From positions 3,712,001 through 3,776,000 of the forward strand of contig OZ245838.1 in NCBI GenBank assembly GCA_965228735.1: a DNA stretch of 64,000 nucleotides, written 5' to 3'. Origin of the DNA: Planctomycetota bacterium. GTDB taxonomy: Bacteria; Planctomycetota; UBA1135; UBA2386. The notes beneath the pieces are model-generated. The model ran no database searches and was not told the DNA's origin. It saw nothing but the letters and a program-made list of their open reading frames with translations. The translations under genes and the position numbers were made by a program. Each line of letters opens with the position of its first letter. Within the stretch, counting starts at the first letter, position 1. Positions 2,960-64,000 of this stretch are shown here, in pieces.

Positions 2960-3071
2960 CACGGCAGTGTCGCCGGGCCGAGAGCCGGCGGCAACTCAGA
3001 CCCGCTGCAAGACGGCTTCGTGACACGCGGCGCGACGCAATCGGGGCCGAGAACCAGCGCGCCCACCGGCC

Positions 3072-37943: not shown

Positions 37944-41198
<3,255 letters not shown>

Positions 41199-42651: not shown

Positions 42652-42831
42652 ATTGCCGTGCCTGGGCAAGCCGAGGCCGGAGCCGATCCGAAGGGTCGGT
42701 CGGCCCGCCATCGGGACTTTCCGGGTCCGCGGGAACCGAGCGGGCTTTTCCGCATTGCTGTTCGATCGCGACTGATCCGATTTGACTCCGGGCCGTTCGA
42801 ACCACGGTCCCGACCCGAGATCCGAGAACTC

Positions 42832-45800
42832 ATGATCCACCGTTGTCACCGCCTGCTGGCCGCATTGTTCGCCGGCTTCGCGTTCCTCACCGCCACGCCT
42901 GCCCAGGGCACCGAGATCGGCTTCACCGAGACGTGGGCCCTCGCCGAGGACCGCGCCAAGGTCCTCGAGCAACTCATCCCGGGCACGGAGGAGTTCTACT
43001 ACTACGGCTGCCGCGAGCAGCTCGCGCGCAGCGACTTCGCCGGCACTAGGCAGCTGCTCGCGCAGTGGATCAAGCGCCACGGTCGGACCGCGCGCGTCAT
43101 GGAGATCGAGAATCGCGAGGCGCTGCTGAGCTACCGCGAGAACCCGGAACGAACGTTCCGCCACCTGCGCTCGCGCCTCGGCCTGCGCTTCGACCACCAG
43201 CGCACCGTGCCGGGTGAGAAGTCGGACCTGCCGACGAGCCTGGATCCAGAACTGCTATCGCCGGCGCGGCTCACGAAGCGCGCATTCGACCGCCACCGCG
43301 GCACCGTCGACGGCTTCGAGGATCGCGCGCTCGCGGCGCTGCTCGGTACCGACCTCACGAACAACCAGCTGCGCAATCTGCTGCAGCGCCTGCGCCGGCC
43401 CGACGTGCCCAACCTGCCGGCGCTCATCGTCCGCGACCTCGGTCACAAGGGCAGCGGCGGCTTCGGCTCGCTCGGCATCCACGGGGAACTGCGCCTCGCC
43501 CAGCTCGAAGAGTGCGTACGGCTGCGACCGGCCGTGCTCAACGACCCCGAATTCGTCGCCACGTATCTCCGCCGACTGCAGCCGCGCACGGATCTCGCGT
43601 GGCAACGCGATCCGGCGATGCGGCAGGCCCAGCTCGAACGCCTGTGGCGCTTCGCGCAGCGCCTCGCGCCGGCGCACAACTCGCTGCGCGCCCACGTGCT
43701 CTACCACTGGCTCGCCCACGATCTCACGCAGGGCGCGGTCGACAGGGACCGCTTCATGGCGTTCATCCAGCTGCCGCGACGCGACAACTGGGTGGCCAGA
43801 GAGTATCGCGAACGCCAGCGCACGCAGCACAATGAGCTCGTCGACTACGGCCGCGACTACGCGTGCGGCCTGCCGCCGGTCCGCAGCGAACAGCAGCTCA
43901 TCCGAAGCTGCCTCGAGCACTTCTTCCGCACCGAGGACAGCTATGCGCCCTACGCCGAGTACCTCGACGAGAACTGGCTGAAGATCGTGCTCGGCGAGAC
44001 CAAGCTGCTGCTCGGCCAGGGCGACCTCGAGACATGGTACTCGATGATCGACGATCCGCGCCGGCTCGAGGCGCTCGAGCAGCGCGTCGAGCTCGCGTTC
44101 CCGGCCACCCAGAAGACGCGATTCGGCGCCGGCGACCCCGTCTCGATCGAGCTCGACGTCAAGAACGTGAAGGCGCTGCTCGTGAAGGTCTTCGTGATCG
44201 ACAGCTACCGCTATCACACGGAGCGGCAGCGCGAGATCGACGCGTCGATCGAACTCGACGGCCTCGTCGCGAACCACGAGCGCACCTACGACTACAGTGA
44301 TCCGGCGCTGCGCCGCGTGCGGCGTTCGTTCGACCTGCCGATGCTGCGCGAGCCCGGCACCTACGTCGTCGAGTTCGTCGGCAACGGCATCAGCAGCCGC
44401 GCCGTGATCCACAAGGGCGGCCTGCGCCACGTCGAGCGCACGATCGCGGCCGGCCACGCGTTCCGCATCTACGACGATCGCGGCCAACTGCAGAAGGACG
44501 CGATACTGTGGTTCGGCGGCCAGGAGTATGCGGCCGACGACGCGGGCGACATCCTCGTTCCGTTCTCGAGCAAGGGCGGCACCAAGCGCGCCGTCATGCG
44601 CGTCGGCAACCGTTCCGAGCTCATCACGTTCGAGCATTGGGACGAGGAGTTCAGCCTGCAGAACTGGGCGTTCGTCGAGCGCGAGTCGCTGATCGCAGGC
44701 GCGAGCGCGCGCCTCGTCGTGCGGCCGCGCCTCGTGCTCAACGGCATGCGGATCGACCTCGCGCTGCTCGAGCAACCAGAACTCACGATCGTCGCGGTCG
44801 ACATCGACGGCACCCAGCGCACCGAGGAGATCCGCGCGCCGAAGCTCACGAACGAGCGTGAGTTCGTCCACGAGCTGCGCGTGCCCGACCGCCTGCAGAA
44901 CTTGACGGTGACCCTGCGCGGCCGGGTCAAGGACCTCGCCGGCAAGGAGCGCGAGCTCTCCGCCACCGCCCCGCCATTCCCCGTGAACGGCATCGACGGC
45001 ACCGCGATGACGCTGGCCGCCGTGCTCGTCCCGCACCCGAACGGCTACGCCATCGAGGTCCGCGGCAAGAACGGCGAGCCGATTCAGGACCGCGCGTGTC
45101 AGGTGCAGCTGCGGCACCGCGACTATCGCGCACCGATCCTCGCGTCGCTGCAGACCGACCAGAGCGGTCGCATCGAGCTGGGCACGCTGCCCGGCATCAC
45201 GGAGCTGTCGGCCGAGCCCGCCGGCGCGCAGCGCGCGCACTTCACCCTCGACGCCGATCACGTCAATCTGCCGGCCGCCCTGCAAGGGCGCGCAGGCACG
45301 ACGCTGCGGCTGCCGTACTTCGGCACTGCCATGACCCCGCGACGCGCCGAGTTCTCGCTGCTCGCGAACGATGCGGACGCGTTCTCGCACCTCGCGATCC
45401 AGGACGGCTTCCTCGAGCTGCGCGACCTGCCGGCCGGTGACTACACGCTGCACCTGCACGAGCGCGGCCACGAGATTCCCGTGCGCGTCACCGCGGGATC
45501 GCAGGACGCGGGCTGGGTGATCGGCCAGAGTCGCGTGCTCTCCGCGAGCGCCGCACAACCGCTGCACATGCGTGGCCTCGCGGTCGACGGCGCGGACCTG
45601 CGCATCGGCCTCACCAACTTCGGTGAGTCGACCCGCGTGCACGTCGTCGCGACCCGCTACCAGCCGACGTTCGATCCGTTCGCGCGCCTGCGCGCGCACC
45701 GCCACGATCACGCGGCCCAGCAGTCGGTCGATCCGCTGCTCAGCAGCTATCACGCCGGGCGGCGACTCGGCGACGAGTACCGCTACGTACTCGAACGGCG

Positions 45801-48800
45801 CTTCCAGACCAAGTTCGCGGGCAACATGCTCGAACGCCCGAGCCTGCTGCTCAACCCGTGGGCCCTCGAGAAGGACTCGTGGAACTCGGCGATCGGCCTC
45901 GGCGGCGGCGCGGGCGGCAAGTTCGGTGGCCGCGGCGGTCGCAAGCGCTCGTCGCTCGACCGCGTCGAGGGCGAAGCCGCCTCCGGCAGTGCCCCCGGCT
46001 CCGGCACGTTCGCCAACCTCGACTTCCTGCCGCAGGGCAGCAAGGCGCACTACAACCTCACGCCCGACGAGAACGGCGTCGTCCGCGTCAAGCTCGCGGA
46101 CCTCGGCGACGGTCACGTCGTGCACGTGATCGCGCTCGACGGCGACGAGGCGCTCTACGACTCCCTCGTGCTGCAAGAACGCGAGCTCGAGCCGCGCTCC
46201 CGCGCGCTCGCCGAGGCGCTGCCGCCCGAACGCCAGTTCGTCGAGCGGAAGCGGATCGAGTTCGTCGCCGCCGGCGGCGAGGCCGTCGTGGGCGATGCGC
46301 ACTCGGCCGACGTCGAGATCTTCGACTCGCTGACGAGCGTCTACGGGCTGCTCACGACGCTGAGCAACGACGCGCATCTGCAGAAGTTCGCGTTCGTGCT
46401 GCGCTGGCCGCAGCTCGACGACGCCAGTAAGCGGAAGCTGTACAGCGACCACGCGTGTCACGAGCTGCACTTCTTCCTCTATCAGAAGGATCGCGCGTTC
46501 TTCGACGCGGTCGTGAAGCCGTTCTTGCAGCAGAAGCTGCGCCGCACGTTCCTCGACGAGTGGCTGCTCGGCAGCGACCTGCGCGGTTTCCTCGAGCCGT
46601 GGCACTTCGCGCGCCTCAACCTCATCGAGCAGATCCTGCTCGCCCAGCGCCTCGACGGCGCCGAGCGCGAGGCGGTCGGCCGGCTCGTGCGCGAACGTTT
46701 CGAGCTGCAGCCCGTCGACCGCGGCCGGATCGAGGCGCTGTTCGCGACCGCTCTCGCGGCCAACGAGCTGCAGGAACAGCGCAAGGACCTCGGTGTGTTC
46801 TACAAAGGCCCGGGCGACAGTGTGCCCGAGCCGTCCCCCGAGGCCAGCGCCAAGCCGACGGGCGGGCTCCCGGGCCGCTCTGGCCCGGCGACCGCCGGGC
46901 CGCCGCCGGCCGCCAAGCAGGTCTCCCGCCGCAGCCGTGATCGCGGCCTCGCCGACGAGGACGCCACAGCCGACGAGAAGGCCGGTGCCGCCACCGGCAG
47001 CGACGACTTCTTCCTCGGCGCCGCGCGCGAGATGAACAAGTCGGCCGACAAGGAGCTGCAGCGCGGCGCCGCGCTGCGGGAGCAGCAGCGCCGGCTCTAC
47101 CGCGCCGTCGATCCGACCAAGCTGCTCGTCGAGAGCAACTACTGGCGACGCACGATCGCCGAGACGACGCCCGACGTCGTGCGCCCGAACGGCTTCTGGG
47201 TCGACTACGCCACGGCGCCGTCGGGCCGGCCGTTCGTGTCCCCGGCGTTCCTCGAAACCGGCGGCAGCTTCCTCGAGATGATGTTCGCCCTCAGCGTGCT
47301 GGACCTGCCGTTCGAGGCTGGCGAGCACGAGGTCGCGGTCGACGGCAGCCGCCGCACGCTGCGCGCGGCCACGCCGTTGCTGCTCGTTCGCAAGGAGGTC
47401 ACGCAGGCGACCGCCGCCGAGGACGAGGCCCCGCTGCTGCTCGGCCAGAATCTGTTCCGCCTCGACGAGCGCTACCAGCACACGAACGGCGAGCAGCGCC
47501 AGAAGTTCGTCACCGACGAGTTCCTCACGTCCGTCGGCTACGGCGCGCAGGTCGTCGTCAGCAACCCGACCGGTCAGCGCCGCACGATCGACCTGCTGCT
47601 GCAGATCCCGGCCGGCGCGCTGCCGCTCCAGAGCGGGTTCTGGACGCGCAGCCGCCCCGTCGACCTCGCGCCCTACGAGACCAAGGCGATCGAGTACGCG
47701 TTCTACTTCCCCGCTGCCGGTGACTTCGCCCACTACCCGGCGCACGCCGCGGTGCAGGGCCGCCTCGTCGCGGCCGCCGAGCCGCGCACGCTCGCGGTCG
47801 TCGAGACGCCGTCGACCATCGACACGCGTTCGTGGGAACACGTCTCGCAGCAGGGCTCGGCGAACGAGGTCGTGGCGTTCTTGCGGAACAACAACGTCCA
47901 GCGCCTCGACCTGTCCCGCATCGCGTGGCGCATGCAGGACCGCGCCGTCTTCGGCGCCGTTACCGACCTGCTCCGCGCCCGCCACGTCTACGACGCGGTG
48001 ATCTGGAGCTACGGCGTCCTACACCGCCACCCCGAGACGACGCGCGAGTTCCTCGCCCACCGCGAGGACCTGCTGCGCCGCTGCGGCAGCGCGTTGAACT
48101 CGCCGCTCGTCGTGATCGATCCGGTCGAACGCGGCTGGTTGCAGCACCTCGAACTGTCGCCGCTCGTGCACGCCCGCGCGCATCAGCTCGGCAGCAGCCG
48201 CAGCATCGGCAACGCCGACCTCGCGCGCCAGTACGCGACGCTGCTCGACGTGCTCGGCTACCGCCAGCCGCTGCGCAGCGAGGACTGGCTGACCGTCACG
48301 TACTACATGCTGCTGCAGGACCGCATCGAGGACGCGCTCATGGCGCACCAGAAGGTCGTGCCCGCGCAGCTGTCGACGCAGATCCAGTACGACTACCTCA
48401 CCGCGTACCTGAGCTTCTTCACCGCGGAGACCGAACGGGCCCGCGGCCTCGCGGAGAACTACCGCGACCACCCGGTCGAGCACTGGCGCGATCGCTTCCG
48501 CGAGGTGCTCGCGCATCTCGACGAGGCCGAGGGCCGGACCGATCCGGAGCAGGACCCGACGACCGGCGACGCGTTGGCCGCGACCGCGCCCGCGATCGAG
48601 CTCGCGCTCGAGGGCCGGACCGCCCGCATCGCGCACAAGAACGTGACGAGCTGCGAGGTGCGCTACTACGAGCTCGACGTCGAGTTCGCGTTCTCGTCGC
48701 AGCCCTTCGCGGCGACCGACGGCACGACCGCGGCCTACGTGCAGCCCAACCTGCGCGAAGAGCGCGACCTGCCCGCAGACCGCGACGCGATCGAGTTCGC

Positions 48801-49161
48801 GCTGCCCGAGCAGTTCAGCAACAAGAACGTGCTCATCGAGGTTCGCGCCGCCGGCCTCGTCCGGTCGCGCACCTACTTCAGCAACGCGCTCGACGTGCGC
48901 TTCCTCGAGTCGTTCGGCCAGGTCGCAGTTAGCGACCCCGAGGCCGGCCGACCGCTGCCGAAGACCTACGTCAAGGTGTTCGCGCGGCTGCCGGGCGGCC
49001 AGGTGCGCTTCCACAAGGACGGCTACACCGACCTGCGCGGCCGCTTCGACTACGCGTCGCTGTCGGACGATCCGAACGCGGGCGCCAACCGCTACGCCGT
49101 GCTCGTGCTCAGCGACGAACGCGGCGCCGTGATTCGCGACGTCGCGCCGCCGATGCAGTGA
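42832..49161 (+). CDS. Giant (about 2109 aa) secreted hypothetical protein
   Basis: Uninterrupted ORF with a signal peptide ending TPAQG, alternating helical and beta-sandwich-like regions, and C-terminal YVKVFAR...FHKDGYTDLRGRFDYASL. Confidence 0.8.
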   Translation: MIHRCHRLLAALFAGFAFLTATPAQGTEIGFTETWALAEDRAKVLEQLIPGTEEFYYYGCREQLARSDFAGTRQLLAQWIKRHGRTARVMEIENREALLSYRENPERTFRHLRSRLGLRFDHQRTVPGEKSDLPTSLDPELLSPARLTKRAFDRHRGTVDGFEDRALAALLGTDLTNNQLRNLLQRLRRPDVPNLPALIVRDLGHKGSGGFGSLGIHGELRLAQLEECVRLRPAVLNDPEFVATYLRRLQPRTDLAWQRDPAMRQAQLERLWRFAQRLAPAHNSLRAHVLYHWLAHDLTQGAVDRDRFMAFIQLPRRDNWVAREYRERQRTQHNELVDYGRDYACGLPPVRSEQQLIRSCLEHFFRTEDSYAPYAEYLDENWLKIVLGETKLLLGQGDLETWYSMIDDPRRLEALEQRVELAFPATQKTRFGAGDPVSIELDVKNVKALLVKVFVIDSYRYHTERQREIDASIELDGLVANHERTYDYSDPALRRVRRSFDLPMLREPGTYVVEFVGNGISSRAVIHKGGLRHVERTIAAGHAFRIYDDRGQLQKDAILWFGGQEYAADDAGDILVPFSSKGGTKRAVMRVGNRSELITFEHWDEEFSLQNWAFVERESLIAGASARLVVRPRLVLNGMRIDLALLEQPELTIVAVDIDGTQRTEEIRAPKLTNEREFVHELRVPDRLQNLTVTLRGRVKDLAGKERELSATAPPFPVNGIDGTAMTLAAVLVPHPNGYAIEVRGKNGEPIQDRACQVQLRHRDYRAPILASLQTDQSGRIELGTLPGITELSAEPAGAQRAHFTLDADHVNLPAALQGRAGTTLRLPYFGTAMTPRRAEFSLLANDADAFSHLAIQDGFLELRDLPAGDYTLHLHERGHEIPVRVTAGSQDAGWVIGQSRVLSASAAQPLHMRGLAVDGADLRIGLTNFGESTRVHVVATRYQPTFDPFARLRAHRHDHAAQQSVDPLLSSYHAGRRLGDEYRYVLERRFQTKFAGNMLERPSLLLNPWALEKDSWNSAIGLGGGAGGKFGGRGGRKRSSLDRVEGEAASGSAPGSGTFANLDFLPQGSKAHYNLTPDENGVVRVKLADLGDGHVVHVIALDGDEALYDSLVLQERELEPRSRALAEALPPERQFVERKRIEFVAAGGEAVVGDAHSADVEIFDSLTSVYGLLTTLSNDAHLQKFAFVLRWPQLDDASKRKLYSDHACHELHFFLYQKDRAFFDAVVKPFLQQKLRRTFLDEWLLGSDLRGFLEPWHFARLNLIEQILLAQRLDGAEREAVGRLVRERFELQPVDRGRIEALFATALAANELQEQRKDLGVFYKGPGDSVPEPSPEASAKPTGGLPGRSGPATAGPPPAAKQVSRRSRDRGLADEDATADEKAGAATGSDDFFLGAAREMNKSADKELQRGAALREQQRRLYRAVDPTKLLVESNYWRRTIAETTPDVVRPNGFWVDYATAPSGRPFVSPAFLETGGSFLEMMFALSVLDLPFEAGEHEVAVDGSRRTLRAATPLLLVRKEVTQATAAEDEAPLLLGQNLFRLDERYQHTNGEQRQKFVTDEFLTSVGYGAQVVVSNPTGQRRTIDLLLQIPAGALPLQSGFWTRSRPVDLAPYETKAIEYAFYFPAAGDFAHYPAHAAVQGRLVAAAEPRTLAVVETPSTIDTRSWEHVSQQGSANEVVAFLRNNNVQRLDLSRIAWRMQDRAVFGAVTDLLRARHVYDAVIWSYGVLHRHPETTREFLAHREDLLRRCGSALNSPLVVIDPVERGWLQHLELSPLVHARAHQLGSSRSIGNADLARQYATLLDVLGYRQPLRSEDWLTVTYYMLLQDRIEDALMAHQKVVPAQLSTQIQYDYLTAYLSFFTAETERARGLAENYRDHPVEHWRDRFREVLAHLDEAEGRTDPEQDPTTGDALAATAPAIELALEGRTARIAHKNVTSCEVRYYELDVEFAFSSQPFAATDGTTAAYVQPNLREERDLPADRDAIEFALPEQFSNKNVLIEVRAAGLVRSRTYFSNALDVRFLESFGQVAVSDPEAGRPLPKTYVKVFARLPGGQVRFHKDGYTDLRGRFDYASLSDDPNAGANRYAVLVLSDERGAVIRDVAPPMQ

Positions 49162-50992: not shown

Positions 50993-51076
50993 GGGGCCCA
51001 AAACCGAGAACGCGGCCATCGAGGGCCGCGTTCAGGAGTGCCACCGCGATCGCGCGGTGGCGAATCGAAGTCGAGC

Positions 51077-51772
51077 TCAGCTGCCGGAGCCATCCGGCGG
51101 CGGACCACTGCCCGCGCCGTTACTCGGCGGACCCTTACCCTTCTTCTTGCTGATGCGAGGCCGACCGGCCTTCGTGCCGCAGCCCTCTCATTCACCCGGC
51201 AGGGGCAAGCCCTGCAGATCCTCGATCTCGAGGCGGGCGAGACGGATGGCCGCCTCGAGGTCCTGCTGCCGCTTCGACTTGCTGTCGGCGCTCGACGCGG
51301 TCTCCGCGAGCAGGCGGAAGTTCTGGCGCGCGGCCTCGATCTCCGGCTCCCACTCCTCGCGGGTCACGCCTTCGAGCCGCATGAGCCACGTGCGGTAGAA
51401 CTGCGCGCGGGCGAGCGACTGGCGCGCCTCGCTGAGCAGCTGCGGGTCGGCGTTCTCGTCGGCCGCGAGCGACTCGACGAGGCCGAGCAGTTCTTCGCGG
51501 GCCTCGTTGAGGCCGGCCGCCTGCATGCGAGCCTTGTTGAGCTCGAGCCGGATGCGCATCGACAGCGCGTCCTGATCCTCGGGCAGCTTGGAGAGCGCGT
51601 CCTCGTAGTCCTTGATCGCGGACCGCCACTCACCCGCGGCCGCGGCGTCGTGGGCACTCGAGAACAGCGCGTCGCATTCCTCGAGGGCGAGCCGATCCTG
51701 GCCCGGGCCCTCGTGGTAGGCCCACGCGCCGATCGGCAGCGCGAGCCAGGTCACAAGTAAGATGCTTCGCAT
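51077..51772 (-). CDS. Membrane-anchored helical (TPR-like) protein, predicted selenoprotein with C-terminal UxxC (Sec TGA at 51188-51190), 231 aa
   Basis: RBS GGAGG; N-terminal TM/signal. The track ORF stops at ...QGLPLPGE-TGA, but the frame continues EGCGTKAGRPRISKKKGKGPPSNGAGSGPPPDGSGS-TGA. SECIS-like hairpin 21 nt downstream. Confidence 0.75.
51156..51174 (-). promoter_or_regulatory. Putative bacterial SECIS element
   Basis: Minus strand CG-A-AGGCC-GGUC-GGCCU-CG: GGUC loop starting 21 nt after the in-frame UGA, the same loop as at 2168-2185. Confidence 0.72.
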
Positions 51773-54896: not shown

Positions 54897-55937
54897 TCAG
54901 TCGCTCTCGACTCGCTTCCACTCGGGGCGGTAGGACAGGCCGGTCTTGATCACGAGTTCGAGCAGGTCGCCGTAGTCGAGGCCGACGGCTTCGGCGGCTT
55001 CGGCGAAGTCCTCGATCTCGGTGAGGTCGGCGTTGGTGTTGACCTCGATCACGTAGACGTTCCCGGCATCGTCCATCCGCATGTCGACGCGCGCGTAGCC
55101 CGAAAGATCGAGCGCGCGGTAGGCGCGGCGGGCGATGTTCTGGATCTCGCGCTCTTTCGCCGGCGGCAGGCGGCGCGCCTTGCCGGTCTTGATGCCGATG
55201 CCCTGCGCGTAATCGACGTCCCACTTCACGCGCGCCTCGGCGATCGGCTTGGTGCCCTTCGGCAACTTGGAGTACCAGACCTCCCAGACGGGAAGAACCT
55301 TGAGACGGTCGTTCCCGACGATCGCGACCGTCAGTTCGCGGCCCGCGATGTATTGCTCGACGACGACGTCGTCCTTCTGCGTGCGGTGCATGTACTCGAC
55401 GCGCCGCTGCAGCTGCCTGTCCGTGCTGACGATCGACGCCTGCGAGATGCCGGCGCTGCCGTGCTTGGTCGCGGCCTTGACGATCGCCGGATACCGCATG
55501 TCCGGCGCGAGCTTCGGCGTCTTCGTCCGCTGCTTGACGACCATGAAGTCCGGCACCGGCACGCCTTCGTGCCGCAGGATCATCTTGCTGATGCCCTTGT
55601 CACCCGCGAGCACCATGCCGCGCGGGTTGCAGCCGGTGTAGGGCTGCTTCAGCAGCTCGAGGTAGCTGACGAAGTGCGCCTCGTAGCTGATGACGTCATG
55701 GAAGTCCGTGATGATGTTGAACACGATGTCCGGCTTGAACGAGCCGATCATCGTCTTCACGGGGTTGAGGTCGTCCTCGACGCCGAAGACCTTGACCTCG
55801 TGCCCGAGGTCCTCGAGCGTCACCTTGACGTCGAGTTCCATCTGGTAGGCCCAGGTGTCGTCGGGGTCGAGCTCGAGCGCGTTCGACGGCGGCACGAGGA
55901 CGTCGTGGACGAGGACGAGGACCTTCTGCTTCTTCAT
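54897..55937 (-). CDS. D-alanine--D-alanine ligase-like ATP-grasp protein
   Basis: PYTG...DK..SK, IVK....GSAGI, VEQYI.GRELTV, GYARVDMR and IEVNTN. The N-terminus lacks the canonical Ddl GG.S.E motif. Confidence 0.8.
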   Translation of the reverse strand: MKKQKVLVLVHDVLVPPSNALELDPDDTWAYQMELDVKVTLEDLGHEVKVFGVEDDLNPVKTMIGSFKPDIVFNIITDFHDVISYEAHFVSYLELLKQPYTGCNPRGMVLAGDKGISKMILRHEGVPVPDFMVVKQRTKTPKLAPDMRYPAIVKAATKHGSAGISQASIVSTDRQLQRRVEYMHRTQKDDVVVEQYIAGRELTVAIVGNDRLKVLPVWEVWYSKLPKGTKPIAEARVKWDVDYAQGIGIKTGKARRLPPAKEREIQNIARRAYRALDLSGYARVDMRMDDAGNVYVIEVNTNADLTEIEDFAEAAEAVGLDYGDLLELVIKTGLSYRPEWKRVESD

Positions 55938-56021
55938 CCGCACCACCTGCTGACCGACCGGCTGCTCACAGCGGCGACCGTAGCGCAAGGCCGACGCGAA
56001 CGCGAAGACTCGCCGGCGCGC

Positions 56022-57038
56022 TCAGCGCCCGGACGCCGCCGCGATCGCGGCCGGGACGGGGCGCTCCTCGGGCATCGCGAGCACTCCCGCGCGGTAGCTC
56101 GTGCCGAAGTAGTGCAGCAGCATCGGCAGCAGCGTCAGCAGCGCGCTGCAGAACACGAGCGCGATCATCGCGTACTCGCGCAGCGTGAGCTGTTCGATCA
56201 GCGGCTTGCGCGAGTCCGCCGCCGCCGCGGCGAGCACGTCGCTCGGCACATGCCGGCGGTTGCCGTTGTGAAACTCGCCGCCGAGGCGGATCGCGACCTG
56301 CCGCAGCGTGCTGACGTCCTGCCGCGACTGGCCGCCGTCGATGAACTTGCCCTGCACGTGGTCGCCGACGCCGATGACGAGCGAGCCGCCGAACGACGGC
56401 GGCAGCTGCGGCATCCCCGTGCCGGGCACCGTGTCGCCGTCCGTGACGATCACGAGCATCGCGCTGTCGGCGCGCCAGAACTTGCCGAGCTTCGCGGCGG
56501 CCTCGATGCCGTCGAACAGCCGGGTCTTGCCGCGCTTGAACGCGTACCGCATCTCGACGGCGCCGCTCATGATGTGACGCACGAGCTCGATGTCGCGCGT
56601 GTCCTCGACGACCGGCTTGGCGCCGTTGAACGTCGCGATCACCGAGATCTTGAACTTGCCGATCGGCACGCGCTCGAACAGGGACTCGACGAGCTCGGCC
56701 GCGCGCTCGCGCCGGCTCATGTCACCCGAGCGCCCCGCGTCGCGCAGCATCATGCTCGGCGACACGTCGTAGACGAGCACCAGGTGACGCCACTCCTCGT
56801 CCGGGATCTCGTCGGACTGGTGGATGACCGGTTCGACGAACATCAGCGTCGTGAGCGCCCACGCGAGTCCGCCAGCAGCGAGCGAACGGATGAACGGCAC
56901 GGTTCGCGCCCACGCCGCCGGCCGCTGACGCGGCCCGAACAGCAGTCGCGAGTGCCGCACGAGGCGCCGCCAGTGCAGCACCTCGCCGACCATCACGAGC
57001 ACGGCGGCGACGCCAGCGAGGATCAGCGGCATCACCAT
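56022..57038 (-). CDS. vWA-domain membrane protein (BatB-like)
   Basis: N-terminal TMs, MIDAS DVSPSM, VTDGD and a C-terminal TM. Confidence 0.82.
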   Translation of the reverse strand: MVMPLILAGVAAVLVMVGEVLHWRRLVRHSRLLFGPRQRPAAWARTVPFIRSLAAGGLAWALTTLMFVEPVIHQSDEIPDEEWRHLVLVYDVSPSMMLRDAGRSGDMSRRERAAELVESLFERVPIGKFKISVIATFNGAKPVVEDTRDIELVRHIMSGAVEMRYAFKRGKTRLFDGIEAAAKLGKFWRADSAMLVIVTDGDTVPGTGMPQLPPSFGGSLVIGVGDHVQGKFIDGGQSRQDVSTLRQVAIRLGGEFHNGNRRHVPSDVLAAAAADSRKPLIEQLTLREYAMIALVFCSALLTLLPMLLHYFGTSYRAGVLAMPEERPVPAAIAAASGR

Positions 57039-57943
57039 GGCGTGTACCTCAGCCCGAGCTGAACGAGGCCCCAGATCGCGAGCACGCAGAGCCCCGCGAG
57101 GGCGAACGGCCAGAACCAGTCGACGAGCTCCGCCGCGGTCTGCTCGAGCTCCGCCTTGGACATCTCGTCGATCGTCATGAAGACGTTCTCGAGCGCCGCC
57201 ATGTCGCCGGGGTTGAACACCTCGCCGCCCGTCAGGCGCGCGAGATTGACGATCTCACCGCGCGCGTCGGCGTCCTGGATGTTGATCGCAAAGAGCTTGA
57301 TGCCGTCCCGCTTCAGCGTCTTCGCGATCTCCATGTCGTTGCCGCCCGTCAGGTCCGAGCTCCAGCCGTCGGTCACGAGCACGATCATGCGATCGCCCTC
57401 GCTGCGTTCGTTGAGCAGCTCGCGGCAGGCCATCACGGCCTTGCCGATCTCGGTGCCGCCGAACCCCGGGATCCGGTTCTCGGGCCGCATGAACGGGATC
57501 GAACACTTGAACGCCGACGGGTCGCTCGTGAGCGGCACCCAGTGCAGGTAGCTGTTGCCGAAGAACGTGAGCCCGAAGGCATCCCCCGAGCGATAGTCGA
57601 GGAACTCGTTGATCGCCTTCATCGACGCGTCGTAGCGCGTTCCCGGGCCGAACTGCGCCGTCATCGAACCCGAGATGTCGACGGCGAACTGGATGTTGGT
57701 CAGCTGCCGCTTCTGCCGGGGTGCTGCGAGCTCCTGCGGCAGCGCGATGACGAGCACCGCGACCGCGAGCATGAGCGCGGGCAACGACTCACCGATCCCG
57801 AGGACGGAACGCACCCACCAGCCGCTGCCGGCGAGCCCCTGGTCGAACGGCAACGCGGTTCGACGACCGCTGCGGCGCCACACCCAGACCATCTGGAGCA
57901 GGGGCAGAACCAGCAGGAGCAACAGCCACGGGCGCGCGAACAT
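57032..57943 (-). CDS. vWA-domain membrane protein (BatA-like)
   Basis: MFARPWLLLLL (BatA-type N-terminus), MIDAS DISGSM, GGTEIG and LVTDG. Confidence 0.85.
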   Translation of the reverse strand: MFARPWLLLLLVLPLLQMVWVWRRSGRRTALPFDQGLAGSGWWVRSVLGIGESLPALMLAVAVLVIALPQELAAPRQKRQLTNIQFAVDISGSMTAQFGPGTRYDASMKAINEFLDYRSGDAFGLTFFGNSYLHWVPLTSDPSAFKCSIPFMRPENRIPGFGGTEIGKAVMACRELLNERSEGDRMIVLVTDGWSSDLTGGNDMEIAKTLKRDGIKLFAINIQDADARGEIVNLARLTGGEVFNPGDMAALENVFMTIDEMSKAELEQTAAELVDWFWPFALAGLCVLAIWGLVQLGLRYTPW

Positions 57944-58833
57944 CAGCTCGACGCCCCCTGCGAGCCGCCGGCGGCGGTCGCCGCAGCCGGCGCGTCTGCC
58001 CTGGCCTGGGTCATCGCGCGGTCGAACGCGGCCGCGTCGACCTGCCGGTAGGGCGCGAGCAGCTTCTGCACGTCGACCGCCTGCGGCGGCTCCGGCACGT
58101 GCAGCCACGCCTCGAGCTCGCGCAGGAGCGGGCCACCCTGATCGTGCTCGCGGATCTTGCGGATCGCGCGGTCCGCCTTCTCGTCCTCGAGATCGAGCCG
58201 TTCGCGCCAGAACGCGACGAGCAGGCGTTCGAGTTCGGCCTGCTCCGCGGGTGACGCCTTGCCGTTCGCCGCGGCTTCGACGAACGGGCGCAACCGGTCG
58301 GCGAAGGTCGGCGGCGCCTCGGCAGCCACGACCGCGGCCCTGCGCTTCCGGCCGACGAACAGGATGGCGAGCAGACCGACGACCCAGAGGACGCCGAAGA
58401 CGATCATCTGCGTGCTGTAGCCGCCGGTGTCCGCCGGCCGCACGGGATCGGGCTCGCTCGGCTCGGTCTCACCCGCGGGCAGCACCGCCGCGACGTCGAC
58501 GGTCAGATCCGGCACGTCCCCGAGCTCCGAACCGTCCTTGCGGCGCAGGTAGTCGCGCAGGTCGAAGGTACCGGCCTCGAGCCCGGTCCACTCGATGTCG
58601 TAGCGGAAGCCCGAGCCGTGCGCGCGCGTCGCGATGATGCGCACGACGACCGGCGACTCGAACGTCGTCTCGGCCGTCTCGAGCTCACTGCCCATGATCA
58701 CCACCTCTTCGAGCAGCGACCGCATGCCGACGGTAGACTCGCGACCGACGTTGACCTTGGTCTGAGCCGAGCCGGCCGAAGGCAGCCCGAGCACCGCAGC
58801 GAGAACGAGCAGAACGACTGACCTGAACCTCAT
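57943..58833 (-). CDS. Single-pass membrane protein of the MoxR/vWA cluster
   Basis: Signal peptide, beta-rich domain, TM (IVFGVLWVVGLLAILFV) and helical tail. Overlapping stop/start codons on both sides. Confidence 0.72.
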   Translation of the reverse strand: MRFRSVVLLVLAAVLGLPSAGSAQTKVNVGRESTVGMRSLLEEVVIMGSELETAETTFESPVVVRIIATRAHGSGFRYDIEWTGLEAGTFDLRDYLRRKDGSELGDVPDLTVDVAAVLPAGETEPSEPDPVRPADTGGYSTQMIVFGVLWVVGLLAILFVGRKRRAAVVAAEAPPTFADRLRPFVEAAANGKASPAEQAELERLLVAFWRERLDLEDEKADRAIRKIREHDQGGPLLRELEAWLHVPEPPQAVDVQKLLAPYRQVDAAAFDRAMTQARADAPAAATAAGGSQGASS

Positions 58834-59702
58834 CGCGCCCCCCGACCGGCGACGCCGCGCGACTGCAGGAACAGGCGCAGCTTGGGCAAGAACGGCTGAT
58901 CCGTTCGCACCAGCAGGTGACCGACGCCGCCGCGCCGCAGATCGCCCGCGATGCGCTCGGTGTCGAGCGGCCGGCGCCGGCCGTGCGTCACGAAGCCGCG
59001 GCCGGATTCCGCTTCCTGCGCACGCAGGAAGCCCGCACCGCGCAGCGTGACCTCGGCCGGATCCTGCAGCTGGATGACCGCGACCTCGTGCTGCTGCGCG
59101 AGCATCGCGATCGAGTGGATCGCGCCCGGCTCGTGCAGATCGCTGAGCACGAAGATCAGCGACCGCGCCTTGAGCGTCGGCCGCAGCTCGGCCAGTCGGC
59201 GCACGATCATCGTCGGCTCGTCGAGCCGGTACTGCCGCAGACGCAGCAGCCACTGCAGCACCGTGTCCTTCGCGAGCGTCGGCTCGACGCGGACGTCGCG
59301 GGCGCCGCCGCCGAGCACGCCGACGGGGCTCATGCGATCGAGGCACGCGAGCGCGAGCCCGCCCGCCAGCCGCAGCGCGAGCTCGTACTTGCTCATGCCG
59401 ACCGACGAGACCACCATCGACGCCGAGGTGTCGACGAGGAACCACGCGGGGTAGCGCCGCTGCGCCTCGTACTCCTTGACGTGGTGCTTGCCCGACCGCG
59501 CCGTCACGCGCCAGTCCATCGACTTGACCGAGTCGCCGGGCTGATACGGCCGCGACTGCACGTAGTCGATGCCCGAACCGCGATAGCGCGAGCCGTCGAG
59601 GCCGTACGTGAGATCGTCCGCGAGCTTCTGCACCGCGATGACGAACTTCTTGATGGGCAGCGGATCGACCTGCCCGAGCATGCCCGTGCGGGTCGAGCTC
59701 AT
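58830..59702 (-). CDS. DUF58 domain protein
   Basis: GSGIDYVQSRPYQPGDSVKSMDWRVTAR...VKEYE...VDTSASM...VLSD. Confidence 0.9.
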   Translation of the reverse strand: MSSTRTGMLGQVDPLPIKKFVIAVQKLADDLTYGLDGSRYRGSGIDYVQSRPYQPGDSVKSMDWRVTARSGKHHVKEYEAQRRYPAWFLVDTSASMVVSSVGMSKYELALRLAGGLALACLDRMSPVGVLGGGARDVRVEPTLAKDTVLQWLLRLRQYRLDEPTMIVRRLAELRPTLKARSLIFVLSDLHEPGAIHSIAMLAQQHEVAVIQLQDPAEVTLRGAGFLRAQEAESGRGFVTHGRRRPLDTERIAGDLRRGGVGHLLVRTDQPFLPKLRLFLQSRGVAGRGAR

Positions 59703-60706
59703 TGCACGGTCTCGGACAGGATCTCCTGCAGGACCTGCGGCCCGGTGTGACCCTCGGCGATCGCCTCGTAGGTCAGGCGGATGCGGTGCAGCACGACGTC
59801 CTCCGCGAGCGCGAACAGGTCCTCGGGCAGCACGTAGTCGCGGCCGTGGATCAGCGCGCGGGCGCGCGACGCCTTGACGAGCGAGATCCCGGCGCGCGGA
59901 CTGCAGCCGAGCTCGAGCTTGGGATGCTTCCTCGTGCGATTGACGATCTCGATCGTGTGCTCGAGGAACGCCTCGCTCACGTGCACCTCCTGCACGTCCT
60001 CCATCGCCCGCACGAGCATCTCGGCGCTGCCCTTCATCGTGTCCTGGATCGCGTCGAACTCGGTGCGCGCGACCGCGCCCTTGCCCTCGCGCTTGACGCC
60101 GAGCTTCATGTTGCGGCGCAGCACCTCCTTCTCCTCCTCGGGCTCGAGGTACTCGAGGCGGTGCAGCAGCATGAACCGGTCGAGCTGCGCTTCGGGCAAC
60201 TCGAACGTGCCGGCCTGTTCGACCGGGTTCTGCGTCGCGATCACGAGGAACGGTGCCGGCAGGGCGAAGTTCTCGTTGCCGATCGTCACACGGCGTTCCT
60301 GCATCGCCTCGAGCAAGGCGCTCTGCACCTTCGGCGCGGCGCGGTTGATCTCGTCGGCGAGCAGCAGGTTGGTGAAGATCGGGCCCTTGTGGATCCGGAA
60401 CTCGTTCGTCTTCTGATCGAGGATCTCGGAGCCGACGATGTCGGACGGCAAGAGGTCGATCGTGAACTGAATGCGCGCGAACTCGAGGTCGATCGCCTTG
60501 CTGATCGCGGCGACGAGCAGCGTCTTGGCGAGCCCGGGCACGCCCTGCAGCAGCAGGTGGCCCGACGTCAGCATCGCGATCAAGGCGCGTTCGACGACGA
60601 CGTCCTGACCGACGACGGTCTGGCCGACGCGCGAACGAATCTGGGACAAGAACTCACGAGTCTCCGCGAAGCGGGTCGTGGCCGGGGCATCGGGGGTAGA
60701 GGTCAT
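59699..60706 (-). CDS. moxR: MoxR family AAA+ ATPase
   Basis: HLLLQGVPGLAKT, RIQFT.DLLPSD, LLADEINRA.PKVQSALLEAMQE, ATQNPVEQ.GTF.LPEAQLDRF and SPRA. Confidence 0.93.
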   Translation of the reverse strand: MTSTPDAPATTRFAETREFLSQIRSRVGQTVVGQDVVVERALIAMLTSGHLLLQGVPGLAKTLLVAAISKAIDLEFARIQFTIDLLPSDIVGSEILDQKTNEFRIHKGPIFTNLLLADEINRAAPKVQSALLEAMQERRVTIGNENFALPAPFLVIATQNPVEQAGTFELPEAQLDRFMLLHRLEYLEPEEEKEVLRRNMKLGVKREGKGAVARTEFDAIQDTMKGSAEMLVRAMEDVQEVHVSEAFLEHTIEIVNRTRKHPKLELGCSPRAGISLVKASRARALIHGRDYVLPEDLFALAEDVVLHRIRLTYEAIAEGHTGPQVLQEILSETVQ

Positions 60707-60762
60707 CTCGAGGGGCGGGTGGGTGGGCCAGCGAACCGGCCAGCGAACGAGCCGGCGAGGGG

Positions 60763-63700
60763 TCAGCGAGCGAGAGCGGAAGCGGGGTTGCTGTTGGCGC
60801 GGCCGAGCCAATCACGGGCCACGGCCTCGAGGTCGAGCGATTCGTCCTCGGCCTTGCCGAAGTGCGCGGCCTCGATGCGCGCGATCGTCACATCGAGCTC
60901 CTGCTTGTCGGCCGGCGACAGCGCGGCGCGGGCCTCGACCTCGCGCAACAGCACGAGCACGCGGAACGCGGTGATCGTGCCCGGCATCGTGATCAAGGCA
61001 GTGCGCTGCTCGACCGAACCGCCGCCGGGCTTGACGCCGAAGAACCAGATGAAGAACAGGACCGACGCGATCCCGATCACGACCCAGAACCACGCGGGCA
61101 CGGCCTCGGGACCGGCCATGCGCAGCGCGATCCGCGGATCGACCGTCATGAGGTCGGCGTCGGCGTAGCGCTGGTAGACCGCGGTCACGTCGTCGCGCGT
61201 CGGCCGCGCGAACACGAACTCCTCGCCGAACTCCTCGCCCTCTTCGGGCTTGAGCGACAGGATCCAGACGCGCTCCGTCTCGACGAGCAGCTGGTCCTCG
61301 GCGAACTTGCTGATCGTCGCGCCCTGATCCTCGCTCTTGTCGATGCGGTAGTCGGGGAAGTCGGTGTCGAGGAAGTCATCTAGGTCGGGCACGAGACCGT
61401 TGGCCTTGGCCTTGATCTCGAGCGTCAGCTTGCCCTCGTCGACCTTGCGTTCGTCGAGCAGCTGCGTGACCGTGAGGTCCTCGAACGGCCGCAGGCGGGA
61501 CGGCGGCGCGGACGCGTCGATCGCGACCGGCGCCGAGCCGATCGGCAGCACCGCGTAGCCCGACGTGTCCATGAAGTCGAAGTCCATCTGGATCGCCGGG
61601 ATCCGGTCGACCTGCGCGCCGCGCGCCTTGAGCAGCAGATACGCGTACGGCGTGCGCCGCCAGCCGGCCTCGTCCGTCGGCCAGCTCGCCATGGAGTCGC
61701 CGTTCCACGTGACCGACAGCACCTCGAAGTGCTCGCTGAGCGCCGTGTTCACGGCCTCGTCGAAGCGGTCGCGGTAGTTCTCCAGCGGGCGGCCGTAGTT
61801 GAACGCGTAGTTCATGTTGTTCTGGTTCTGCGCGTACTTCGCGAACCCGCCGCTCTCGCGTTCGATCTCCGGCGTGTGCACGATGTCGACGCGCACGCCG
61901 AACTCGCCCGTGCCGACCTCGGTCGGCCCGTCGACCACCGCCTCGAGCTTGAGCTCGCGCGTGAGGTCGCCGTAGTAGTTCCAGACCTTGCGCGCCTCGG
62001 CCGCCTGCGGGTGATCGCCGGCGATCTCGAAGCCCGCCTCGAGGTAGCGGAACTTGATCTGCGGCTTGACGGACGACATCCGCGTGAACAGCGCGTTGGC
62101 GAACATCGCCTCGTGCCGCTCGCGGCTGCCCTTCGGCAGGCTCGCGAGGGCCGCCTTGATCTTGGGCAGCTGCGTCTTGGCGACGACCGTGCTCTCGTCG
62201 ATCACGCCGAGATCGCACGCGCCGAGCGCCGCGTAGAACCACGTGTCGAACGCGTCGAGCTTCTCCTCGTCGACGCGCAGGTCGGGCGCCCGCTCGATGT
62301 AGTCCGCGGCGGCCTGCTCGAAGAGCTCGAACGCGTACTTGCGCGCCTCGGCGAAGCCGCTGTCGCGCTTCTGCTCGCTGCTGAAGTTGTTCTGGTCGTG
62401 CAGGATCGCAGCCGTGAGCGCGAGCAGCGCCCAGTGCTCGCCCTTCTTCGTCATCACGTCGCGCGCGACGGTCAGCGCCGTCGCGTATCCGCGCATGACC
62501 TCGGCCATGATCTCCTTCTCGCGCCGCCCCGTCTTCTTGTCCTCCTGCACGGCCGGCACGCGCCAGACCGTCGCGAGGTTGGCGCGCATCTTGGCGAGCA
62601 GCTCGCCGAGCAGCTCGGGCTCGAGGTTCTCGACGCCGCCGAACACCTGCTCGATCGTCTCGAGGCGGTAGACCTCGGCCGTGCTGTGCGCGGCGATGAA
62701 CGCCTGGCTCAGCAGCTTCTGATCGACCGGCTCCATCGGCAGCGCGCGCATGCGCGAGACCCACTTCGACAGCTCTTCGAGGTTGCGCTCCTGCTTGCTG
62801 CGCGTCAGCGGGATGCCGCGCGCGCGCTGGTTGAAGCCGTAGACGAACATGTAGGGGTTCGTCCGGTTGTTGTTGACGTTGGGGTTGTTGTTGCGCATCC
62901 ACACGCGCAGGAACTCGTCGGCGAGATCCTTGGCCTTGCGCGGATTGACGGTCGCGAGCTTCTCGATGAACGGGAACGCCTTCTCGTACTCGTTGACCTT
63001 GAGGAACAGCTGCGCCGACACCGTCTGGAAGTGCGGCGCGAGCGCGCGGTCGAGCATGTCGACCCAGCGCGGGCCGGGCTGGCTATCGATGAGATCCGCC
63101 GGCTCGATCGACTGCACCTGCCCGCCGCCGCCGAGGCGCTGGTTGCTCCAGAAGATGTTGCCGAACGAGTCGCGCTGCATCATCGGACCGTAGCGCGTCG
63201 TCTGACTGTGCTGGTTGGTGTAGGACGCCTCGACGATCCAGCCGGACGCGAGCAGCGCCAGCGTCGGGCGCCAGTCTTCGGCGAGCTCCGGCGCCGATTC
63301 GAGCAGCGCGTCGACAGCGACCTTCTGCAGCTTGATCACCTTGCTGCGATAGTCGGTGTCCTTGGCGTGCTTCTGGAAGCCCTTGGCCGCCTCGCCGCCG
63401 ATCGTCGCGATGATCTCCATGCCGCGCTGCGGCATCTCGGTGAAGCTCTGCGCGAGCCACTTCGGCCCGAGCTCCTCGCTGACCTTGGGCGCCAGGTCGA
63501 CCGCGCGCAGCAGCGCCTCTTCTTTCTCTTCCGCGCTGACCTCACCGCGCTTCAGCACGGCCTGCGTCACGCGCCACGCGCCTTCGAGGTACTCGTTGCG
63601 CTGCTCCTCGGCGAACTTCGCGAGGTAGAACCGCGCCAACAGATTGAGCGCCTCGCGGTCGTTGTCCTCGTCGGCGTTCTCCGGCGTCGGCAGGAACGGC

Positions 63701-64000
63701 CCGAGCTCACCATCGAGCTTGACGGCCGACAGCAGCAGCGCCGCCTCGCGACGACCGAGGCGCCGGTCTTCTTCGGCCTGCTCGACCTCTTCGCGCAGCA
63801 GCCGCACGAGCTCCTCGACCACGCTGCCGAACTCCATCGCCCGCTTGACGAGCGGCGCGAGCAGCTCGACCTGCTTCTTGTCGAAGCCGCCGGGCGCCAT
63901 GCCCGCGAGGATCAGCGTCTCCTGGAACGAGAACCGGTTCTTCTCCTGCAGGTTGGCCGGCACGCGCCGATCGGCCGGCGTCTGCGGATGCCGCGGCAGC
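60763..64000 (-). CDS. Large membrane-anchored protein heading the MoxR cluster (partial, more than 1075 aa, start outside the window)
   Basis: The frame stays open to the window edge (LPRHPQTPADRRV before the track start). Long helical-repeat region, two BatD-like beta domains and a C-terminal TM (WFWVVIGIASVLFFIWFF). Confidence 0.78.
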   Translation of the reverse strand, partial: LPRHPQTPADRRVPANLQEKNRFSFQETLILAGMAPGGFDKKQVELLAPLVKRAMEFGSVVEELVRLLREEVEQAEEDRRLGRREAALLLSAVKLDGELGPFLPTPENADEDNDREALNLLARFYLAKFAEEQRNEYLEGAWRVTQAVLKRGEVSAEEKEEALLRAVDLAPKVSEELGPKWLAQSFTEMPQRGMEIIATIGGEAAKGFQKHAKDTDYRSKVIKLQKVAVDALLESAPELAEDWRPTLALLASGWIVEASYTNQHSQTTRYGPMMQRDSFGNIFWSNQRLGGGGQVQSIEPADLIDSQPGPRWVDMLDRALAPHFQTVSAQLFLKVNEYEKAFPFIEKLATVNPRKAKDLADEFLRVWMRNNNPNVNNNRTNPYMFVYGFNQRARGIPLTRSKQERNLEELSKWVSRMRALPMEPVDQKLLSQAFIAAHSTAEVYRLETIEQVFGGVENLEPELLGELLAKMRANLATVWRVPAVQEDKKTGRREKEIMAEVMRGYATALTVARDVMTKKGEHWALLALTAAILHDQNNFSSEQKRDSGFAEARKYAFELFEQAAADYIERAPDLRVDEEKLDAFDTWFYAALGACDLGVIDESTVVAKTQLPKIKAALASLPKGSRERHEAMFANALFTRMSSVKPQIKFRYLEAGFEIAGDHPQAAEARKVWNYYGDLTRELKLEAVVDGPTEVGTGEFGVRVDIVHTPEIERESGGFAKYAQNQNNMNYAFNYGRPLENYRDRFDEAVNTALSEHFEVLSVTWNGDSMASWPTDEAGWRRTPYAYLLLKARGAQVDRIPAIQMDFDFMDTSGYAVLPIGSAPVAIDASAPPSRLRPFEDLTVTQLLDERKVDEGKLTLEIKAKANGLVPDLDDFLDTDFPDYRIDKSEDQGATISKFAEDQLLVETERVWILSLKPEEGEEFGEEFVFARPTRDDVTAVYQRYADADLMTVDPRIALRMAGPEAVPAWFWVVIGIASVLFFIWFFGVKPGGGSVEQRTALITMPGTITAFRVLVLLREVEARAALSPADKQELDVTIARIEAAHFGKAEDESLDLEAVARDWLGRANSNPASALAR

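Follow-up and report, generated by a model that had tools for sequence, protein, structure and literature searches.

A candidate TPR-type selenoprotein family linked to a MoxR-DUF58-VWA operon in Planctomycetota and Verrucomicrobiota

A short gene in the 64,000-nucleotide stretch of planctomycete DNA analysed here (the window) raises the question of whether an in-frame TGA ends its product or is read as selenocysteine (Sec) and, in the latter case, what such a residue would do in a protein of this build. The first-pass annotation, made from the letters of the window, had proposed a 231-aa selenoprotein with Sec195, and this proposal is borne out by comparative evidence from TGA/Cys pairs, from the downstream tail, from a hairpin and from the Sec machinery of the genome. 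Our preferred reading is that of a 231-residue selenoprotein in which a TPR scaffold would carry a flexible U-x-x-C tail. The protein would belong to an envelope complex of MoxR, DUF58 and VWA proteins, and the tail is predicted to serve that complex as a redox arm. Taken as a whole, we give this reading a probability of about 0.5.

The reading frame and its in-frame TGA

The target gene lies on the minus strand, from 51772 to 51077 (the annotation had given no strand), and starts with the ATG at 51772. Right behind the codons for ...DLQGLPLPGE stands the in-frame TGA (51190-51188), followed by GAG GGC TGC and by 33 further sense codons up to a final TGA at 51079-51077, the same layout as had been described at first. 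Readthrough gives 231 aa with U195 and C198 in a U-E-G-C motif, and a stop at TGA195 would give 194 aa. Four sequencing runs from three studies carry the target stretch without any differing letter, and these runs may be the source of the assembled DNA; no RNA data set was listed as carrying the stretch. A plus-strand reading of the same coordinates was rejected as a shadow frame. The features of the gene and of the operon discussed below are collected in Table 1.

Table 1. Features of the target gene and of the neighbouring operon, in window coordinates
Feature	Coordinates	Strand	Basis
Whole target CDS, 231 aa with TGA195 as Sec	51077..51772	-	Frame reading; GC3 0.91 before the TGA, 0.78 after
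N-terminal basic-then-hydrophobic helix, residues 1-21, signal anchor or signal peptide	51710..51772	-	Model helix 2-21, alignment
Predicted TPR domain, residues about 28-183	51224..51691	-	AlphaFold2 model and structural matches
In-frame TGA, inferred Sec195	51188..51190	-	Homologue column: TGA in 85/111, TGC/TGT in 26/111 distinct loci
Cys198 of the U-E-G-C motif	51179..51181	-	Frame reading and homologue position +3
SECIS-type hairpin AGGCC[GGUC]GGCCU, loop 21 nt past UGA	51158..51171	-	Sequence and hairpin comparison
36-residue tail, Lys/Gly/Pro-rich, predicted disordered, conserved end ...PPPDGSGS	51080..51187	-	Homologues and model
Terminator-like hairpin 3' of the second TGA	51008..51033	-	Consensus match alone; 0.5 expected by chance
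VWA protein B (BatB position), DxSxS intact	56022..57038	-	Operon gene comparison
VWA protein A (BatA-like, three hydrophobic helices), DxSxS intact	57032..57943	-	NCBIfam best match Leptospira BatA, 83.8 bits vs cut-off 380
Conserved membrane protein, signal and one TM helix, without Pfam family	57943..58833	-	Neighbour clusters
DUF58 protein	58830..59702	-	Family match
MoxR-type AAA+ ATPase (AAA_3)	59699..60811	-	Family match
Giant exported, C-terminally anchored protein, about 1275 aa, start beyond window end	60763..64000	-	Operon comparison

Evidence for recoding of the TGA

A protein search returned 2,798 relatives of the target. Among the best 120 of these, 110 end in LPLP[SG]E, seven end in LPLPGC and three are full length with CxGC at the site, so that 117 of the best 120 database homologues terminate at the Sec site; these ends are gene-caller output, and the truncation is the one that the annotation had foreseen. 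The seven proteins ending in LPLPGC suggest, by their sequence, another CU form among closer relatives. The site was then read in the DNA of 120 loci, drawn from a phylum sample (48 of 401 genomes matched), from 17 further regions and from named genomes (73 loci). We left out L047 (G356), a weak unrelated match, L026, which is cut by a contig end, L029 and L046, for want of an anchor, and five duplicates, leaving 111 distinct loci. The site column holds TGA in 77 of them (the main TGA forms), C-TGA in eight and TGC or TGT in 26, which makes 85 with TGA in all; none of the 111 distinct anchored homologous loci has TAA or TAG there. The final stop varies among the 81 loci counted (TGA 52, TAG 25, TAA 4). 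Both Planctomycetota and Verrucomicrobiota (all named records) have TGA forms and Cys forms, and on a quick tree the U label requires five changes, two of them forced by well-supported branches. A class sample of 201 genomes gave a strong target match in 100, with a TGA inside in 94 of those 100 and two TGA in 22, as counts in which each case was not read singly.

Three positions past the site, the 77 main TGA forms have C in 65, U in six, N in three, S in two and T in one, and four of these 77 forms have a second TGA six codons on; UxxU, CU and U-x5-U spacing variants all occur among the homologues. The tail was followed in 20 close loci of equal length. Substitutions by codon position amount to 0.19/0.19/0.33 in the 36 codons past the TGA and to 0.24/0.19/0.41 in the 37 codons before it, against 0.68/0.70/0.69 beyond the final stop, and frame 0 of the tail is free of stops in 20/20. 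Of the 111 loci, 58 have SGS at the very end of the protein and 31 have GGS. Judged by this substitution pattern, the tail is evolving as coding sequence. Two matches among 8000 scored looked like longer fused forms, and the one joining the target to the giant protein (P0123) is an apparent frameshift, so it was not taken as a fusion. Among 23 candidate stretches from viral contigs, we found no relative of the target.

The hairpin AGGCC-GGTC-GGCCT (51171-51158) begins its stem 16 nt and its loop 21 nt past the TGA, in the place where it was first noticed, and its loop is indeed identical to the one that follows the TGA at 2212-2210 at a distance of 31 nt. Loops of the form C[GGUY]G on a stem of at least four pairs are present in 76 of the 77 main TGA forms versus none of the 26 Cys forms, these counts not being independent events, since related genomes are not independent and clades share stems. 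In the 76 hairpins, stem pair 2 is C-G in 31 and G-C in 43, pair 3 is G-C in 42 and C-G in 34, and pair 4 is G-C in 44, C-G in 25 and U-G in seven. Pairs 2 to 4 thus switch between C-G and G-C while all 76 hairpins remain paired, as expected for covariation. The distance from UGA to loop is 21 nt in 50 cases, 18 in 13, 27 in eight, 39 in four and 24 in one, and the 39-nt cases lie 21 nt from their second TGA. The eight CU forms lack an exact GGUC-type loop and have a GUU-loop hairpin instead, which is the best structure at a similar place in six. A looser first scan found four hairpins of any kind among the 26 Cys forms, two of them stable. Cys or TGA at the site, a conserved tail and a covarying GGUC hairpin in the TGA copies alone were what the annotation had expected of a real selenoprotein family, and TAA or TAG ends without a conserved downstream peptide what it had expected otherwise; the loci present the first picture. 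A true stop, with a 194-aa protein and a relic tail, would agree with the truncated database homologues, but those ends come from gene callers, TAA and TAG are absent from the site, the tail is open with a coding pattern and the hairpin covaries, so that we give this possibility hardly any credence.

Two groups of loci depart from the common arrangement. In L009, L081, L097 and L098, which have two TGA six codons apart, a second covarying hairpin carries the second UGA on its top, ahead of the GGUC hairpin, and L036-L043 form a clade in which C-U replaces U-x-x-C and the SECIS loop is different.

The published model of bacterial SECIS elements (PMC13188914, section 5) has a loop of 3-9 nt with G in the first two places, a stem of 4-16 bp, a distance of 16-37 nt from the UGA and an energy of at most -7.5. 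The target element, for which the annotation had recommended a bacterial SECIS prediction, fits this model with its 4-nt GGUC loop, 5-bp stem, distance of 21 nt and energy of -7.5 kcal/mol bare or -10.1 extended, though competing folds exist: when the 60-nt stretch from the UGA is folded alone, the best structure is other than the GGUC hairpin (z 0.20). The loop-closing pair has a probability of 0.16 when folding starts from base 0, of 0.95-1.00 without the first 6-12 bases, which are presumably those that a ribosome would cover, and of 0.06 in a longer folding window. As a measure of chance, 64 of the 45,242 TGA codons that close frames of at least 60 codons in the genome (0.14%) have such a hairpin 16-37 nt downstream, and the same scan gave 11 of 14,305 for TAG and 0 of 1,974 for TAA. 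Among these 64 TGA codons are those of four TlpA-like genes with W-U-x-x-C and of two GSYT-U-PPF genes.

One TlpA/ResA-like thioredoxin-fold gene lies in the window itself (1889-2962, minus strand), with W-U-G-P-C and the hairpin CACGAGC[GGTC]GCTCGTG 31 nt on, and three further genes elsewhere in the genome have exactly this hairpin. The two GSYT-U-PPF genes (G000:C1:2174543 and 2539130), which we take to be deiodinase-like, have the hairpin GGCC[GGTC]GGCT at the 21-nt spacing of the target. The hairpin behind the TGA at 41182 belongs to an antisense frame and was taken as chance. The SelD gene (G000:C1:122771) has its own TGA and, since no GGUC tetraloop follows it, the genome would seem to have more than one type of SECIS.

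The host genome has selA, selB and selD over cut-off as well as tRNA-Sec, so that all four components of the Sec machinery for which the annotation had proposed a search are present. Among genomes with the TGA form, selA is over cut-off in 31 of 32, the exception being a genome that is 83% complete. Twelve genomes have Cys or Cys-free forms, with selA absent from six and present in six, and selA is found in 5/5 further non-TGA genomes. As far as these genomes go, the TGA form needs selA and selA does not force the TGA: Sec is optional, since 11 genomes with selA (6 + 5) have retained a Cys-only subfamily.

UGA readthrough by other tRNAs occurs in some bacteria, and the site column holds Cys in homologues, as would be expected if the TGA were read as Cys or Trp by another route. 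This alternative is, however, very hard to uphold: tRNA-Sec is the sole gene with a TCA anticodon among the 67 tRNA genes found by ARAGORN, the TGA forms track selA, and the hairpin agrees with the bacterial SECIS model and is common to six TlpA-like and deiodinase-like genes of the genome. TGA195 is almost certainly a selenocysteine codon, in our judgement, because of the Cys/TGA column, the hairpin, the coding tail and the Sec machinery, and the comparative tests make it nearly as good as certain that SelB bound to the GGUC hairpin would insert Sec at UGA195.

Operon context and comparison with Bat systems

In Stieleria mannarensis and in genome G056 the gene order is MoxR, DUF58, membrane protein, VWA-A, VWA-B, target and giant protein. 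At least one operon gene lies in the fetched flank of 111 of 119 loci. VWA-B is directly upstream of the target in 62 of the 111 loci with 1 kb of flank, and a VWA gene is found within the flank in 95 of these; the giant protein is directly downstream in 76 of the 104 loci with enough flank, and MoxR is present in 52 of the 67 with 4.5 kb upstream. In the class sample, a stricter first look (E 1e-50) found VWA-B in 102 of the 201 genomes, including all 100 with a strong target match, kin not being independent, and in the two genomes with VWA-B but without a strong target match VWA-B sits at a contig end. This tight linkage of the target family to the MoxR-DUF58-VWA-VWA operon, which the annotation had missed, is the best clue to its function. 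The copy in the window occupies the minus strand and stretches from beyond 64000 down to 56022, the giant protein gene being followed by MoxR, DUF58, the membrane protein, VWA-A and VWA-B. The target lies 4.2 kb past VWA-B, behind an ATP-grasp gene and two plus-strand genes, and this distance, with two opposite-strand genes in between, speaks against a role in the complex.

The ATP-grasp gene directly behind VWA-B (54897-55988, minus strand) is D-Ala-D-Ala ligase-like, and other small membrane genes stand here in other close relatives. VWA-A ends in R-Y-T-P-W (57032-57046, minus strand), with R, P and W invariant among 41 sequences. On the plus strand, a 2167-aa frame (42658-49161) has a GC3 of 0.92 and begins like a signal sequence, and it matches no family in Pfam or NCBIfam; according to the cluster output, its product also adjoins the target in about 20 close relatives.

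The order of the target operon matches that of Bat operons, as given in the available text of PMC5700661 and PMC3557215. Like BatC, the target comes behind MoxR, DUF58, an accessory gene for a membrane protein and a pair of VWA genes, and ahead of a large exported protein, and both have a hydrophobic N-terminus, TPR, a low-complexity tail and conserved last residues. However, the same genome has a canonical Bat operon (C1:6495381-6504105) with MoxR, DUF58, an accessory gene, BatA, a BatB-like gene, a TPR gene with a Gln-rich tail and BatD, with Pfam matches for BatA and BatD, and the target profile has no match to the protein in its BatC slot (E 10, Z 100), a single BatC-like sequence labelled by position and build, whose long Gln/Glu-rich tail has no Cys, unlike the target. 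As the genome has both operons, the target operon is a paralogous system built like Bat, and we do not file the target as BatC. None of 42 giant-protein C-termini matches BatD (PF13584), which matches another locus of the genome. The BatA N-terminal domain (PF07584) gives weak matches on 7 of 41 VWA-A proteins (best E 0.0015), VWA-A is absent from its five own-genome matches, and VWA-A matches Leptospira BatA weakly along the full length.

Other MoxR systems offer a looser comparison. NorQ/NorD and RavA/ViaA share with the target system a MoxR AAA+ ATPase with VWA partners that keep DxSxS, but the target system has in addition DUF58, a pair of VWA proteins in the membrane, the TPR selenoprotein and the giant exported protein. 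In its available text, PMC3495828 treats another MoxR system.

Protein body, tail and possible roles

The AlphaFold2 model, built with 32 sequences, is all-helical (mean pLDDT 83.6), with a helix at residues 2-21, helices from 25 to 187 and no beta-strand, and becomes a low-confidence coil from about residue 190 on, where the U-E-G-C motif lies. The best structural matches of residues 28-183 are TPR domains (Z 15.2, rmsd 2.9, 139 aligned); no thioredoxin-like chain stands among the 50 structural matches listed, which excludes nothing by itself. Pfam TPR matches stay below cut-off, NCBIfam 20.0 has no family near cut-off for the target and gives weak sub-threshold TPR-type matches for 32 members, and sequence comparison with solved structures yields generic TPR alone. 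According to the model the body is a TPR domain, a common fold that gives no function, and the description of the body as all-helical or TPR-like rather than as a thioredoxin fold was correct. The UxxC thioredoxin-fold selenoproteins, such as the TlpA/ResA-like gene of the window, resemble the target in having UxxC with UxxU, UxxS and UxxT variants, a GGUC SECIS loop and probable export; they differ in that the target has an all-helical TPR body and its motif in a predicted disordered tail, and the alpha/beta fold with the motif at a helix start, for which we looked, is absent from the model.

In the N-terminal region, W9, H20 and G22-P23-G24 are invariant among 32 sequences, the net charge is positive in 108 of 110 sequences, and small-x-small precedes Y-H in 68 of 110. 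The target had been called membrane-anchored from the outset: its basic and hydrophobic N-terminal helix agrees with this, but the segment is moderately hydrophobic (below a hydropathy of 1.6 over 19 residues) and, judged by sequence, may be an anchor or a cleaved signal peptide, invariant W9 favouring the anchor. Either way, the rest of the protein is likely to be outside the cytoplasm. The segment would probably send the protein across the inner membrane with its N-terminus in, and the TPR and tail would then face the periplasm like the VWA domains; the available text of PMC5700661 places the BatA-like VWA domain of Borrelia BB0173 in the periplasm. Gene order and co-occurrence make it very probable that the TPR domain docks on the VWA proteins or the giant protein, or holds a client.

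Near the site, 83 of the 85 Sec forms have two Cys/Sec residues and 2 of the 77 main TGA forms a single Sec without Cys nearby, and the Cys forms have two to six Cys in variable CxC, CC and CxxC spacing, 23 of the 26 having at least three. The SECIS-coded G-R aligns with the last Cys of the Cys forms. One homologue, L029 (G173), from a genome without selA, has no tail Cys at all and keeps the operon and the G-S end. We favour a redox arm, because the first position of the motif is fixed while the second tolerates S, T, N and U and because the extra Cys are missing from the Sec forms; a single reactive pair seems to suffice, given that the Sec forms keep two Cys/Sec residues while most Cys forms have three or more. 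By a slight preference over its rivals, the tethered selenolate would attack a disulfide or an oxidised Cys of a client or partner, Cys198 would resolve the bond and a TlpA-type reductant would recycle the pair. Against this, the motif, placed in a disordered tail, is not surrounded by a thioredoxin fold that could tune it, L029 does without any Cys, the Cys-only subfamily persists in 11 genomes with selA, and bat deletions in Leptospira biflexa had no oxidative-stress phenotype, according to the available part of PMC3557215.

The same selenoprotein and complex could instead use the tail as a metal carrier, in which a soft metal ion would be bound by Cys/Sec ligands and passed on to a client remodelled by MoxR and the VWA proteins. 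The Cys-rich tails of the Cys forms, with their number and variable spacing of Cys, look in sequence more like metal sites, the UxxU, CU and U-x5-U variants shift the spacing freely, as suits a flexible chelator, and both VWA proteins keep DxSxS; MoxR/VWA pairs are described as inserting metal into clients, as NorQ/NorD do for FeB (PMC9976466, available text). On the other hand, the Sec forms lose the third and fourth Cys and have the SECIS-coded Gly-Arg in their place, two forms are left with a lone Sec, and MoxR resides in the cytoplasm, beyond which the tail probably lies. On balance we hold metal carriage to be less likely than the redox arm, though it is the main rival. A structural or regulatory tail, either cross-linking subunits or present as a ...GSGS extension of the TPR form only when selenium supply allows it, is more doubtful still. 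A stop at the site would fall just past the folded domain and leave the TPR intact, and the conserved last residues are found even in the Cys-free L029; yet the Cys forms always make the tail, and the presence of Sec in two phyla at one and the same column suggests that the chemistry of that atom matters.

Returning to the redox arm, Sec is carried on a mobile C-terminal arm of a body with another function in mammalian thioredoxin reductase and in SelK/SelS, a likeness that is meant as an analogy and not as homology. SelK and SelS are, moreover, anchored in the membrane and belong to a protein-handling complex that includes an AAA+ ATPase. That a MoxR AAA+ chaperone system in Planctomycetota and Verrucomicrobiota has a selenium redox arm of its own, borne by a TPR subunit, is a tentative idea, to which we assign somewhat less than even odds; if true, it would be the first selenoprotein in a MoxR/VWA machine and a bacterial parallel to SelK/SelS beside p97. 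It would also offer a first chemical approach to the proposal, reportedly made by Tang et al. in 1999, that periplasmic proteins are reduced by complexes of the Bat type. Because Sec usually marks a reactive residue, its presence directs attention to chemistry within a Bat-like MoxR/VWA system, a kind of system whose role has been a question since 1999. For Bacteroides, the reduction of periplasmic proteins by Bat proteins is mentioned as a proposal in the available text of PMC3557215.

From its sequences, the target family is in all likelihood real and so far uncatalogued as a selenoprotein family. Its homologues are named 'hypothetical' or 'tetratricopeptide repeat protein' in databases. Besides the NCBIfam result, Table 1 of PMC13188914 (119 families) has no TPR or MoxR-linked row and the available text of that paper contains neither 'TPR' nor 'Planctomyc', in line with the initial view that the target fits no recognised family; a search of deep-Sep (PMC12013277) by terms gave nothing on it, the available part of BSepDB (PMC13326102) holds known families alone, this one not among them, and literature on a selenoprotein with MoxR and von Willebrand domains was not found, nor did the target family appear in the selenoprotein surveys covered. 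The bacterial selenoproteome would gain a widespread family, truncated in databases, with the TGA form in 94 of the 201 sampled class genomes. Most catalogued selenoproteins are oxidoreductases or metal enzymes, and a TPR scaffold with Sec in its tail is a different build. The cultured planctomycetes Stieleria, Rhodopirellula and Rubinisphaera have the Cys form of the family, so that the tail can be mutated and assayed there.
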